A program made the position numbers and the translations under genes. From NCBI RefSeq assembly GCF_016433145.1, contig NC_058133.1:174144629-174208628 (forward strand): 64,000 nucleotides of DNA, in the 5' to 3' direction. Below, piece after piece: positions 17,100-52,590 of this stretch; positions within the stretch are counted from its first letter, which is position 1, and each line of letters opens with the position of its first letter. The DNA is from Gracilinanus agilis. Its lineage: Eukaryota. Under the pieces are notes generated by a model. It saw only the letters and a list, made by a program, of their open reading frames with translations, was not told the origin of the DNA and did not search any database.

Positions 17100-17284
17100 G
17101 CAAGAATATTTCCTCAGAATAAATGTAAAGATCTACACTTTGGTTTAGAAAATCAATTTTATACTCACAAGATATGTAACTAAGGTGTTATTTCTGCAAT
17201 AAGAGATGGGGGGGAATTAATGGACTGTTAAGTTCAGCATAGGTCAAGGTTATGGATGGGATGGTCAAAATGATGAAATTTTAG
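17100..17284 (+). mobile_element. L3/CR1 LINE, left part (host of the ERV insertion)
   Basis: atggactgttaagttcagcataggtcaag is colinear with the L3 3' consensus and resumes at 19705. Confidence 0.7.
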
Positions 17285-18586
17285 GAAGATGATTTTATTT
17301 TGGGGGTGTTAACTGTAGGTTGCCTGTATTGATTTTGGCTCCTACTAGTTTGGAGGGCAAAATTTTTCACCTCCTCGATTTCTTTCTCTCGCCTTATTTG
17401 TTTTAATTGCCTTTTAAAATCAGCTATCATTTCGTCTTTGTCTGAGTCAGTCTGTCTTGCGATTCTTGCTTCTTTCTGTTTTGAGTCATGGATGTAAGAA
17501 GCATGTTGCCTTACATCCTCCAGTGGCAGTGATTCCCACTGTGGACAATTCTGTCTAAAGTAGTTTTGTATTGGGATTGATGTTCCCTTTACAAATTTCC
17601 TACGTATGTGGTCTATGGTGTCCTGGGCATGTGTATCTCGTAGACCAAGTATTGTCTCAGCTGCCTCAATTACTTGATCTAGAAAACTTCTTCTTCTTCC
17701 CCCGTTTTAACTTTTCAAACTTTTGCCAAGAGTTTGGTCTTTTTGCGTGAATTCTCATTGCCTCAAGTAAGACCATTCTACCCTGAATCAAGTATCTAAG
17801 GTTTGCATGCTGTGTGAAATCTAAGTCTTGGTGAACTAGTGGCCATGCTGTCAAATTGGGGTTCGTCCTTGTTTCATTAAGGAATTTTTCCTCTTCTGAG
17901 GAAGAATAAAATTCCCCTAAAAGAAATTCCATGTCGTCTAAACTTGGATTAAATAATGTAAACACTCTCTTTAATTCCCTGATGCTCTTGAAAGGTTTTT
18001 CGAAATACTTGGGAAAGCATCTTTTTAGGACCTCCATATCACTTGGGGTGAATGCTTTGTATGTTTTCACATGCACTACCCCTTCACCAGGCTGCACTAC
18101 TGTTCTGTTTACTATTAGTAGGAGAGAGACTGTGGCATTTGTGGATGGTTGGGTTTTTGTGGTATTGCTTCCTAGATACTTTGATTACACAATCTCCAGT
18201 TGGAGAATTGTGTGCTTATCCAATTCCCTTCCTTCTCTTAGTTGTTTTAGTGCTTGGAACAGTAGCTTGATGTTTGCTACCAGTTCCTGAGAATTATCGT
18301 CTTTCTTGGTTGAGATTGTATTGTAATAGTTACACAGGTGAGAGCATACGTTCTTTGAGACTGTTAGGAATTGCCAAATAGACAGGGTTATGGCTATGGC
18401 AGTTGGGATAAAACAAATGCGCTCAGCCAGGGTTAAGGCACACCATTTATAATAGTCATAGAGGTCTAAAGCTTGTTGCACAAAATTGGGGACTGTCTTG
18501 AACCAAAAATCTATTACACCTTGCATGAAATACCATGACATGATGGATATGGTAGATAAGATGAATGTTATTCTAGCCAGTTTCAT
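17285..18586 (-). pseudogene. gag: Retroviral Gag (capsid p30-like) with one in-frame TAA (18185-18187), one frameshift (about 17685-17703) and a 3' truncation
   Basis: YKAFTPSDMEVLKRCFPKYFEKPFKSIRELKRVFTLFNPSLDDMEFLLGEFYSSSEEEKFL aligns by eye with MLV p30 (YWPFSSSDLYNWK..PSFSEDP..L..V..THQPTWDDCQQLL..L...EE). The major homology region reads KFEKLKRG then shifts to FLDQVIEAAETILG; the shifted frame stays open (RRKFVKG...YFRQNCPQWESLPLEDVRQHASYIHD...) to the junction. ORFs 18185..18889 and 17666..18097 are in the same frame. Confidence 0.9.
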
Positions 18587-19029
18587 TTTGGGTATGTCAG
18601 AAGATATAAGGTTGTTCGCTAACTTTACTCGACAATTAATGTAATGGATAAAAGAGGGGGTACTCTCCTTCCCTTGCTGAGTGATGGAGGGGTAAAAGGT
18701 GATTGAGGTAATAGGATAGGAATGGAAGGGAAGGCTAAGTTTAGGGAGGAATGGACAAGGTGGTATTTGGATGGTAAGGGTACAGGTGAGGTATTCAGGA
18801 GAGGCAGCTAACACACCCAGGCTAGAGACAGAGGATATTGGGGTAATAGGCTGAACCCTTCCAGGCAGGAAAGGTACTTTTACAGACACAAGGAACAGAG
18901 CCAGACAGAAGTGGTTTGAATCTGACTTGAGGGCTTTCTTGTCAGTTTCTTAAGTCCTCAAAGGAGGAACCACAAGGCTCCTCCTTGTCGGTGAAATTGA
19001 AGGGATTCAGGAGGAAGCATTGGGCAACT

Positions 19030-19704
19030 ACTTCCTCCCAAGATGAATGCCTCCAGTTTCCCTCAGGAAATAAAAGAGAATTATTCTTTCCCCTTCACCC
19101 TTGCCTAATTTCTTCAATACATAGATTCTCCAGAGGGTTTGATTAAGTAACCAAAGGTTTATTAATGTTTCAGGATTGGTCTGAAGGAGAGAGGGGTTCA
19201 GGATTTCTGACAACTGCTATGGAGAAACTCAAGATGGGGGAGAGTCACAGGAATGGGTTAGACTAAGAGAGAACCTGCTCTCTCGACCTGGGAAGATTTA
19301 GCTGCCTTTTAAGTAGAGGGTATACTAAAGGGATAGTTTGAATTCAAGGATGTCCTACTTGCCTATTGAGGAAAACTAAACCCACAAAGTCTTTTCACTA
19401 AAAACCCAAAAGCCACCCTGCCTCCCAGAGCCCTGGGAAAACAGGCAGGGAAAAACAGGGAAATAATATGGAGAAAGGTCAGGGAAAGGTCCAGAGAAAT
19501 TAGCTAGGTACAGATTGTCCAAAGACAAGGCACAGGCCAAAGCAAACCGAAAGCCAAAATAGAGCTCTGGTTGATCCTTCCACTCTGTTCAAGCATCAGG
19601 GACCAACTGCCCTCTCTCAGAATTCTAAGGCTTCTAATTGCCAGAAGTTTTCACTTGGCCCCCTACAAGAGCAAAAACCTCTCTCTTGCATCTTTTGCAT
19701 TACA
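19030..19704 (-). mobile_element. 5' LTR of the ERV (3' boundary uncertain, primer-binding site not recognised)
   Basis: Starts with TG at 19704; TATA-like TACTTAAAAG at about 19306-19315; AATAAA at 19158-19163; short TTTCCCTG repeats in the U3-like part. Confidence 0.65.
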
Positions 19705-20215
19705 TGGGGTGGTCAAAATGATGAAATTTTAGACTGAATTAATAGAAGACAGTGTCCAAAATACAGGATGCAGTAGTCCCATTTGCTTAGGCCACATGTT
19801 GAAGAGTTGTAGATAGTTTTGATTGCCATATAAAGCACAGCCATAGAAAGGCAACCTAGATGATGGTAAATGCCATTTGAGGATCATCTGAAGGAACTGG
19901 TGATGTTTAATTTGAAGAAGAGAAGACTTTAGAGGTATGTGATACCTAGCTTCGAATATTTGAAGCGCTATCTTTAGAACAGTTAAGATTTGTTTTACCT
20001 GGTTCCTGAGAGACAAATGAGTAGAAGTTACAGAGAAGCAACTTTAATTCAAAATGAGAAAAAACTTTCTAACACTTAAGATTTCCTGACCAAAATCCAG
20101 AAGAGGATGTCTTGAGAGTAGGGAGTTCTGTGTTCCTGGAGCTCTTTAGGCAGAGCTGGAGGATCATTTGTTAGAAGCATTGCAGGGGATGAATACTTTA
20201 GATAGTTTGATGAAA
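19705..20215 (+). mobile_element. L3/CR1 LINE, right part
   Basis: aatagaagacagtgtcc...gaggatcatctgaaggaactggtgatgtttaatttgaagaagagaagac...gaaaaaactttctaac...ctctttaggcagagctggaggatcatttg. Confidence 0.85.
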
Positions 20216-27390: not shown

Positions 27391-28598
27391 ATGAGTTAAA
27401 CAGAGGACTTAGCAGTTCTCCCTTTTCCCTATCATATTCCATAGTGGAATGTAAGCTCTTTGAGGGCAGGGGAAATTTCATTTTTTAATTTTATGCATCA
27501 CCTACTTCATTGTGCCGCATATAGCAGATTCTTAACAAAAGTTTGTTGAACTGTATAAAATTAATCAGCTACATTTAAGCAGTGGTTCTGTGATGAATAT
27601 GAGGGGGAAAAAAACCAACTTCATTTACTCCGACAGGTGATCTCATTTAAATGTGTTAACGTTTCCAGAGTAGCCCAGGATAACATGTAGATGTTAAGTT
27701 CGAGATAATTCTAAAAGTATTAAAATTGGTTTTTTTAATTGGAAGAAAATTGCAGCTTTTTCCTATTTAAAATTAAGAAGTTAAAGATTTTTAATCAAGA
27801 TAATCTTGCAACTTCTTAAGGTGCAACTTATTTTGAAAGCAAAATGATCCCTACTTGAACAAAGAAAGTCCTAAGGAAAAATTGTGAGTTAATGTTTACT
27901 CTTTTAGTACTATTTTAATCAAATGACTTTACAACTTGACCTTTTGAATGTGAATATTTTTTTAAAAAGCACTAAGGTGTGTGAGACCAGAATTATTTCT
28001 TAGTGAAAGATTAGGACCTTAGGAATCTTTTATTTGAATCTTGAATATTCCATCAGCAATGGAAATGTTCTGGTTGAGATTTTCAGCAGCAAACCCAGGA
28101 TGGTTTCATTCTTCTGCTGATAAGATATTTGGAGCAGTGATCCAGATATGAGCAGATTTAAGAGGAAGGTAAAAGCATTTTGTGTCAACTCAGCCTTAAA
28201 ACTCTTTCACTTGAGAAATATAGGTTGGTGAGAATCAAACACAGAAGACACTACTGAGCTGAAACTTACTGTTTCCAACAGCTTCTCTTTTATCTCTGTA
28301 GGTATAGATGTAGAGAAAGGGATAGGAGCTACATCTGTGATTTCACTGATACAAGGAACTCGTACAGGAGGAAATTCCCTCCACCCATGCAAGTTAGCAC
28401 CTTTTCTACAATTTATAGTCTTAAGGAGTTGCCTAGATCACTTAAGGGTTAAGTGACTTTTAAGAGCTTTTATGTGTTAGAGACAGGACTTGAATCCAGG
28501 GCTTCCTGGCTTCAAGGCCAGGCTCTATGCCTCTGTATTAGGCTGCTAGAAATAGAGAGTGAAGGCAACACTATATTTTATTAAAAGTAGCTGGGTGG

Positions 28599-28782
28599 GG
28601 GCAGCTGGGTAGCTCAGTGGAGTGAGAGTCAGGCCTAGAGACAGGAGGTCCTAGGTTCAAACCTGGCCTCAGCCACTTCCCAGCTGTGTGACCCTGGGCA
28701 AGTCACTTGACCCCCATTGCCCACCCTTACCACTCTTCCACCTATGAGACAATACACCGAAGTACAAGGGTTTAAAAAAAAA
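28599..28782 (+). mobile_element. Young SINE1_Mdo-like SINE with a 16-bp target-site duplication
   Basis: Full head gggcagctgggtagctcagtgg, A tail, and TSD aaaagtagctgggtgg at 28583-28598 and 28783-28798. Confidence 0.95.
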
Positions 28783-39663: not shown

Positions 39664-40082
39664 AAATCCTTACCTTCTGTTTTAAAAACAATACTAAGGG
39701 GGCAGCTGGGTAGCTCAGTGGATTGAGAGCCAAGCTTAGAGACGGGAGGTCCTAGGTTCAAATCTGGCCTCAGACACTTCCCAGCTTTGTGACCCTGGGC
39801 AAGTCATTTGACCCTTATTTCCTAGACCTTACCACTCTTCTGCCTTGGAGCCAGTACACAGTATTGACTCTAAGATGGAAGGTAAGGATTTAAAAAAATA
39901 AAATCAGTAAAATCAATAAAATCAAATCAAAAGTAAGTATTGATTCCAAGGCAGAAGAGTAGTAAGGGCCAGGAAATGGGGATCAAATGACTTGCCCAGG
40001 GTTGGGTAGCTAGGAGGTATCTGAGCTCAGATTTGAACCCAGGACCTTTTTTTCCAAGCCTGGTTCTTACTACCTAACTGTC
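39664..40082 (-). mobile_element. SINE1_Mdo-like SINE interrupted by a second SINE
   Basis: aaatccttaccttctgttttaaaaacaatactaag (39664-39698) resumes as taagtattgattccaaggcagaagag at about 39934. Confidence 0.8.
39698..39935 (+). mobile_element. Young SINE1_Mdo-like SINE nested in an antisense SINE
   Basis: Near-consensus ggggcagctgggtagctcagtggattgagagcc...ggagccagtacacagtattgactctaagatggaagg with an (AAAATC)n-like tail. Confidence 0.92.
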
Positions 40083-52380: not shown

Positions 52381-52590
52381 GGGGAGCAGCTAGGTAGCTC
52401 AGTGGATTGGGAGCCAGGCCTAGAGACGGGAGGTCCTAGGTTCAAATCTGAGCTCAGACACTTCCCACCTGTGCGACCCTGGGCAAGTCACTTGACCCCC
52501 ATTGCCTACCCTTACCATTCTTCTGCCTTGGAGCCAATACACAGTATTGACTCCAAGATGGAAGGTAAGGGGTTTAAAAAAAAAAAAAAA
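52381..52590 (+). mobile_element. Young SINE1_Mdo-like SINE with a 16-bp TSD (one mismatch), inserted in a MIR
   Basis: aaaagtaaaggggtgg (52360-52375) and aaaagtaaagggttgg (52588-52603); near-consensus body. Confidence 0.93.

Follow-up and report, generated by a model that had tools for sequence, protein, structure and literature searches.

Two hydrophobic stretches stand ahead of a retroviral capsid in a decayed gag of Gracilinanus agilis, and the locus raises the question of whether a class I lineage of endogenous retroviruses (ERVs) gave up its matrix for a membrane domain and turned to intracellular assembly. The element lies on the minus strand of the window, the whole 64,000-nucleotide stretch of DNA that was analysed, and reads, in order, a 1065-bp LTR, a decayed primer-site-like stretch, a 53-nt leader and gag from 18586 to 17284 (Table 1). 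The gag ATG sits in CCCAAAATGA and opens a 133-codon frame that closes at the TAA of 18187-18185; downstream of this stop, a frame matches Gag_p30 at E 6.6e-5 and 23 bits, below the cut-off of 27.4. The two hydrophobic stretches, the one TAA and the p30-like capsid described in the sequence-only reading are all present in the window sequence. Its count of only two lesions was too low: besides the TAA there are frameshifting indels near 17700 and a cut at 17284, and the copy is without ~95 of ~532 gag codons, the zinc knuckle among them, and without all of pol. The window element is truncated and dead, and belongs to a class I ERV family without an envelope gene. At the junction at 17284, no bridging contig was found among the sequencing-run contigs listed, which is evidence neither way. 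The insertion site resembles what we take to be an old LINE fragment, and a SINE-like repeat of ~200 bp occurs in many copies in the window (e.g. 28596-28757, 39697-39903 and 52381-52588).

Table 1. Features of the ERV copy in the window (window coordinates)
Feature	Position	Strand	Remarks
Target-site duplication, left copy, 28 bp	19705..19732	.	27/28 identical to 17257-17284
5′ LTR, 1065 bp	18640..19704	-	TGTAATG...CATTACA ends; TATA-like site 19313; AATAAA 19163; same LTR at 3′ end of other copies
Primer-binding-site-like stretch, decayed in window copy	18617..18634	-	most other copies start TGG
Leader, LTR end to gag start	18587..18639	-	53 nt in window copy; 52-56 nt among 12 copies scored
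Hydrophobic segment 1, residues 3-21	18524..18580	-	after basic N-terminus; predicted signal or signal-anchor
Amphipathic linker, net acidic, residues 22-56	18419..18523	-	conserved P33, Y43, W48
Hydrophobic segment 2, residues 57-75	18362..18418	-	conserved P61; basic residues after; predicted membrane anchor
Amphipathic helix, residues 98-118	18233..18295	-	possible coiled coil
In-frame TAA, private to window copy	18185..18187	-	0/29 other loci
p30-type capsid, N-terminal part	17690..18043	-	frameshifting indels near 17700 within major homology region
Capsid C-terminal part and charged linker	17284..17706	-	element cut at 17284, ahead of zinc knuckle
Target-site duplication, right copy, 28 bp	17257..17284	.	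sequence comparison with left copy

The family of the window copy

Genome searches with a 601-base gag probe (1455 first-look candidates, 40 scored, 30 fetched) and with a 3′ probe (833 first-look candidates, 40 scored) revealed that the copy number of the window family is high. Longer copies carry a p30 capsid, a zinc knuckle, protease, RT, RNase H and an integrase with an MLV-type C-terminal domain (MLVIN_C matched in three copies). Gag_p30, the Pfam check suggested at the outset, passes its cut-off in copy L033 (E 7e-10) and stays below it in the window copy and in L048; another family copy matches PDB chain 6hwx_A, labelled ‘putative gag polyprotein’ and presumably the MLV capsid, at E 3e-6. 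The one zinc knuckle is matched by zf-CCHC weakly in L048 and above cut-off in protein P0002. Gag ends at a single TGA or TAA in the nine loci printed, the same frame being open behind it in most, and the target duplications in family copies are of 4 nt. The best matches of the RT, at 35-52%, are to vertebrate class I-type Pol. The capsid of p30 type, the MLV-type integrase end, the gag-pol stop within one frame and the RT matches make the family a class I (gamma/epsilon-like) ERV, in agreement with the affinity first proposed for it.

A spacer of ~1.36 kb, AT-rich and stop-rich, separates pol from the 3′ LTR in the 18 of 30 loci where this LTR was seen (two of the 18 are duplicates). Pfam env families were found in none of the 18 X-read frames from six copies, a natural env from the G. 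agilis genome had no match in 91 clade stretches, and no small ORF for a separate membrane protein was noted from pol to LTR in the family or sister copies examined. By these searches the family is without env, a point that the sequence-only reading had put forward for checking in full-length members. Of the traits that mark the genus Gammaretrovirus, it has neither the N-myristoylated matrix, nor env, nor an RT within the MLV-like group; the class II (betaretrovirus-like) pol of IAP is likewise not found, nor are the conserved upstream leader frame and the downstream matrix or Met-Gly of MLV glycoGag. The frame upstream of the window ATG is open for 121 codons in this copy and for 11-83 in the 12 others scored. 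As it is not conserved, there is no glycoGag-like upstream leader.

Three further aspects of the layout were observed. A Ser/Glu-rich spacer of 330-400 residues separates the gag stop from protease in the window family and one sister group (L046:3458-4435, + strand; L164:2895-4100, + strand); it is much shorter in L159 and matches no Pfam family above cut-off. A ~70-bp tandem duplication in the spacer after integrase is common to most copies (L051:1934-2071 and matching loci). U5 apparently spans ~500 nt (18640-19140 in the window, reckoned from the AATAAA at 19163) against a leader of ~54 nt, and because U5 is long and the leader short, packaging signals may lie in U5 or gag.

The gag ATG (18586 in the window) is kept in 29 of 30 loci; taken at first for a good-context start, it has in the window copy an adequate, not optimal, context (A at -3, no G at +4). 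A true family stop at 18185-18187, which would have counted against the sequence-only reading, is absent, as the window TAA recurs in none of the 29 other loci. Met-Gly occurs in 0/30 copies over the first 160 codons, which bears out the initial remark that there is no Met-Gly start, and within these codons no separate Met-Gly gag start lies downstream. Over the same stretch, ATGs kept in at least three copies stand only at codons 1, 16, 21, 25 and 36; because none is so kept in codons 37-160, no second, soluble matrix-led Gag is apparent, unlike in MLV glycoGag.

Pairwise pN/pS over codons 1-78 is 0.33 (0.22-0.52, an optimistic interval, as the copies are related and the pairwise counts are not independent), compared with 0.85 and 1.09 for the other two frames of the same DNA, a contrast that is unchanged without CpG codons. 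The ratio is 0.50 over codons 79-157 and 0.28 in the capsid. Non-coding LTR controls give 0.56-0.84, with U3 intervals that overlap the interval of the gag N-terminus; since these controls fall below 1, the neutral baseline is ~0.7, and the frame contrast is the stronger test. Codons 1-78 are under purifying selection, and the hydrophobic Gag start is a family trait, not private to the window copy.

Hydrophobic Gag starts and the missing matrix

The N-terminal domain is built of a basic start, hydrophobic segment 1, an amphipathic acidic linker, hydrophobic segment 2, a basic patch and a helix, followed by the capsid. Domains of this type align (alignment A1, 24 rows) across proteins 13-40% identical, with near-invariant M1, P33, Y43, W48 and P61. 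Gag_MA has no match in any of the 24 members of A1, hhalign of A1 against nine outgroup matrix regions returns a probability of 0.1%, and a matrix profile matches none of 61 clade stretches; the same profile does recover outgroup Gags beyond its own seed set. Judged by these profile comparisons, the N-myristoylated matrix is missing, and a selected two-segment hydrophobic domain is in its place. A few relatives do begin with Met-Gly, namely P0015 and P0016, with Ile at position 6, outside the usual myristoylation motif; L176 and L140/L160 can likewise be read from a Met-Gly. In the sister locus L137/L159, a myristoylation-pattern match occurs at the Met aligned to P0002 residue 8.

The nearest Gags in a search of 1.84 billion proteins are Monodelphis predictions and ENA fragments, known here as proteins alone. 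On the Kyte-Doolittle scale, N-terminal hydropathy peaks at 1.9-2.6 in P0002, P0003, P0007, P0010, P0015, P0016, P0030 and P0110, whose starts are readable, and at only 0.69 in P0006, of the same group. For the turtle, pigeon, echidna, lizard and gamma-type Gags the peak is no higher than 0.98, and 7/9 have the myristoylation pattern. Genome searches with P0015, P0002 and P0030 uncovered further sub-lineages with the same kind of Gag start. Among longer proteins, P0002 is the sole match to the A1 profile; a word-index protein search with a natural Gag gave no match, the ESM Atlas no usable match to the window N-terminus, and a single-protein query of viral contigs no relative. Within the capsid clade, P0030/P0110, L172-L173, P0003 and P0010 have a single hydrophobic segment that is not alignable to the two-segment domain. 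In P0030/P0110 and P0003 this plain segment reaches a hydropathy of 2.4-2.6, and the hhalign probabilities of the single-segment N-termini against A1 are 1.7% (P0030/P0110), 2.1% (P0003) and 26% (P0010). The one-segment anchors are possibly separate gains.

The capsid tree places 20 hydrophobic-labelled rows on one side of a branch (SH-aLRT 99) and 12 matrix-bearing rows, namely reptile, bird, echidna and gamma-type Gags (P0086 left out as too short), on the other; no label shuffle in 500 scored as low, with weak labels in L161 (44 residues), L175 (22 residues) and L171 (unchecked), and unlabelled P0005 and P0006 falling inside. The marsupial class I ERV lineage put forward in the sequence-only reading thus holds as a clade, and the trait is wider than was thought, extending to several divergent sub-lineages: by hydropathy and tree placement, a hydrophobic Gag start is present across the capsid clade in opossum-like marsupials. 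The reptile-bird-mammal spread of the matrix-bearing Gags suggests a root among them, in which case the matrix would have been lost once. In the RT tree, which held no class II or III outgroup and from which P0009 was left out as too short, the family and Monodelphis Pol form a group (100/98) beside lacertid lizard ERVs (92/87) and a turtle ERV. The family, on a long branch (1.14), stands apart from a bat gamma-type Pol group, each stem having 100/99.

Six of 20 sister stretches have two LTRs, 86-99% alike, with 1.0-1.8 kb from pol to LTR; a frame of at least 150 aa between pol and LTR was found in none of these six two-LTR copies, and no env-bearing progenitor was found inside the clade. L187-L206 are a young, distinct family with a gamma-type env and LTRs of ~350 bp, 94-99.7% alike and paired in 16/20, many copies being internally deleted; its protease motif is one that we take to be betaretrovirus-like.

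Predicted topology and competing readings

Segment 1 of the window copy is moderately hydrophobic, with a hydropathy peak of 1.59 over 15 residues and 1.38 over 19. Segment 2 peaks at 1.73 over 19 residues in the window copy and at 1.52-2.36 across the 30 copies, and is preceded by Glu in most A1 rows. Residues 21-45 are strongly amphipathic, with a moment up to 1.6. Summed over the 24 A1 rows, which are related and so not independent, K+R/D+E amounts to 23/4 before segment 1, 52/83 in the linker and 48/10 after segment 2. Charge asymmetry is related to membrane topology by the positive-inside rule. Read by this rule, the bias would place the linker in the lumen with both ends cytosolic, or make segment 1 a cleaved signal and segment 2 an anchor; it suggests that the capsid stays cytosolic under either topology. 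In an AlphaFold model (pTM 0.30), residues 2-117 form one long helix and no hairpin. With segment 1 only moderately hydrophobic, the domain may be a signal peptide, a transmembrane hairpin or a monotopic amphipathic hairpin.

The reading that we favour, at a probability of roughly 0.55, is that the Gag N-terminus inserts in the ER membrane with the capsid cytosolic, that particles would bud into the ER lumen, and that the family would spread by intracellular retrotransposition. The two-segment domain would enter the membrane as an N-in/C-in hairpin or as a cleaved signal and an anchor, leaving capsid and nucleocapsid in the cytosol, where packaging of RNA and Gag-Pol is possible. Gag would stay fixed to the membrane of its synthesis, presumed to be the ER; by analogy with IAP and MuERV-L, the simplest outcome would be budding into ER cisternae, with germ-line spread by intracellular retrotransposition. 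The moderate segment 1 (1.38 over 19 residues) and the single long AlphaFold helix weigh against this reading, as do the few relatives read from a Met-Gly (P0015, P0016, L176, L140/L160) and the ability of an ER-made membrane protein to move on to the plasma membrane. The fuller history, in which an old opossum class I clade swapped the whole myristoylated matrix for a new integral-membrane hairpin and became intracisternal retrotransposons, is advanced tentatively, its odds falling a little short of even.

The continuous AlphaFold helix would suit a different arrangement, unlikely on balance, in which the helices lie in the cytosolic leaflet as a monotopic amphipathic hairpin and tether naked capsids without budding, perhaps near the nucleus; the ER, outer nuclear membrane, lipid droplet and mitochondrion are its candidate membranes. 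The amphipathicity of residues 21-45, the shortness and moderate hydropathy of segment 1, and the conserved Pro of segment 2 and the Glu before it in most rows point the same way. However, segment 2 reaches 1.5-2.4 over 19 residues in 30/30 copies, the basic-acidic-basic charge asymmetry fits a true hairpin, and the single segment of the sister Gags P0030/P0110 and P0003 is a plain one of 2.4-2.6.

It is rather improbable that the anchor instead takes Gag along the secretory path to the surface or endosomes, where env-less particles would be released and pass directly between cells, or do so with an Env taken from env-bearing elements in the genome. Many open-frame env genes are indeed present in the G. 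agilis genome (78 scored matches), but the 20 env-bearing stretches have a pol, where matched, only 24-25% like the family RT and the A1 domain in 0/20. Env-independent cell-to-cell spread has been reported for Drosophila MDG1 elements, via a small membrane protein (10.1101/2025.03.14.642691), whereas no such small ORF was noted between pol and LTR here, and the high copy number fits the env-less ‘superspreader’ pattern described in PMC4643047.

Very little probability attaches to a glycoGag-like role, that is, a type II membrane protein with a luminal capsid part and an accessory or restriction function, particles being made from another start. MLV glycoGag does have a transmembrane segment before its matrix and a luminal C-terminus (PMC12530543). 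In the family, by contrast, there is neither a second matrix-led start nor a matrix, basic residues follow segment 2, and this Gag frame must deliver the enzymes, because pol continues the gag frame beyond a single stop. Although AT-rich DNA yields hydrophobic translations and the LTR controls also have pN/pS below 1, it is scarcely credible that the hydrophobic frame is an accidental AT-rich leader with the true Gag start downstream, as the domain aligns across 13-40% identity with its near-invariant residues, the pN/pS ratio is frame-specific, and no downstream start is kept.

Element ends, known counterparts and meaning

A full second LTR within 8.4 kb after the start was found in 0/21 gag-selected copies, and two full LTRs in 0/20 copies picked by their 3′ end, of which one has a large N gap. 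Seven of the 17 scored copies with a 5′ LTR end in an LTR-end stub of ~3-95 nt with a 4-nt duplication, compared with a mean of 1.0 and a maximum of 4 in 2000 trials with shuffled flanks. Two of these seven stubs are inverted U3 ends (such ends are listed at L041, L049 and L165), and a younger sister group shows the same LTR-stub forms. The copies inspected for odd ends were the window copy, L031-L050, L081-L100 and L164-L170; L048, L082 and L084 start at or next to the primer site, and L096 and L170 keep only 5-7 nt of the 5′ LTR. In the window copy the U3 end is normal, the opposite end is truncated and the duplication is long (28 bp), which is the pattern reported for HIV and ASLV integrations that are one-ended and completed by enzymes of the host (PMC5041404). 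For this copy, a complete U3 end and no poly-A at the junction rule out an L1-processed pseudogene; a general assembly failure on two-LTR elements is rejected on the LTR pair of 16/20 env-bearing stretches, although these have shorter and younger LTRs.

The primer-site-like stretch begins 5-6 nt past the end of the LTR, and the polypurine tract, seen at the 3′ LTR starts of L101-L119, is a weak one; either could give poor cDNA ends. The stretch in the window copy has, as far as we can judge, a likeness of ~8 nt only to a tRNA-Arg site, and a tRNA gene search of the 64-kb window found none. The ends suggest that broken or incomplete cDNA was repaired at integration. Later deletion and survivorship, given that two-LTR copies collapse to solo LTRs, are rival explanations, but they would not readily account for inverted ends or very short stubs. 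The one-LTR-stub habit of the clade may be a trace of the proposed intracisternal life cycle.

MuERV-L, a class III element, forms the epsilon particles, and its Gag carries an N-terminal ER signal of its own. That its particles accumulate in the ER (PMC5930517) is a precedent missed by the sequence-only reading; given it, the family would repeat a known strategy in a new class. The family resembles it in being without env and differs in its p30-type capsid, zinc knuckle and MLV-type integrase C-terminal domain. Mouse IAP (class II, derived from IAPE) lost env and gained an ER signal on Gag (PMC4643047, PMC6466679), and shares with the family the loss of env, high copy number and, for the family by prediction, a membrane-targeting Gag N-terminus. 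Unlike IAP, the family is class I, has no matrix similarity left, and carries a new domain, common to the whole clade, in which two hydrophobic segments span ~75 residues and a helix is added; ER targeting, demonstrated for IAP, is here predicted from sequence. On the evidence so far, the family would work in the manner of IAP or MuERV-L and is a member of neither. FcERV-gamma6 of the cat and MLERV1_3 of Myotis belong, like the family, to class I and have lost env; they spread by retrotransposition, as the family is proposed to do, but as described in PMC4643047 they retain a recognisable, faster-evolving Gag_MA, which in the family is replaced. MLV glycoGag (gPr80) is, likewise, a class I Gag with a hydrophobic segment ahead of the capsid; it starts at an upstream CUG, keeps its matrix, is type II and is made alongside normal Gag (PMC12530543), whereas in the family a conserved ATG follows the LTR by ~54 nt and there is neither a matrix nor a second start. 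The dasyurid element MEBrv 3 is also an env-less, amplified marsupial ERV, but its RT is class II-like, and ‘myrist’ occurs 0 times in the main text of its description (PMC11334065). The nearest outsiders by capsid and RT are the lacertid lizard, turtle, bird and echidna class I ERVs P0035, P0060, P0009, P0011 and P0018, which differ in starting with a Met-Gly that fits the myristoylation pattern and in having a matrix-like region that is hydrophilic (hydropathy no higher than 0.98). Among the titles and opening abstract lines listed by the literature searches, no class I or opossum Gag with a membrane N-terminus was found described. Prior annotation is possible, and Repbase, we presume, very likely lists these families by name.

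The transition from retrovirus to intracellular retrotransposon has been called poorly understood (PMC4643047), and the worked examples found in the literature are mouse elements of classes II and III. If the ER reading is true, the clade would be the third lineage to have reached ER assembly independently, class II IAP and class III MuERV-L being the others, and each of the three ERV classes would then have made the switch. A class I clade with its matrix swapped, kept under selection through 13-40% identity and at high copy number, would make the re-routed Gag a convergent solution, and its one- and two-segment N-termini would offer a natural series for asking which anchor directs assembly to which membrane. 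ERVs make up ~10% of the Monodelphis genome (PMC13709493), and the clade may account for part of the heavy ERV load in opossum genomes.
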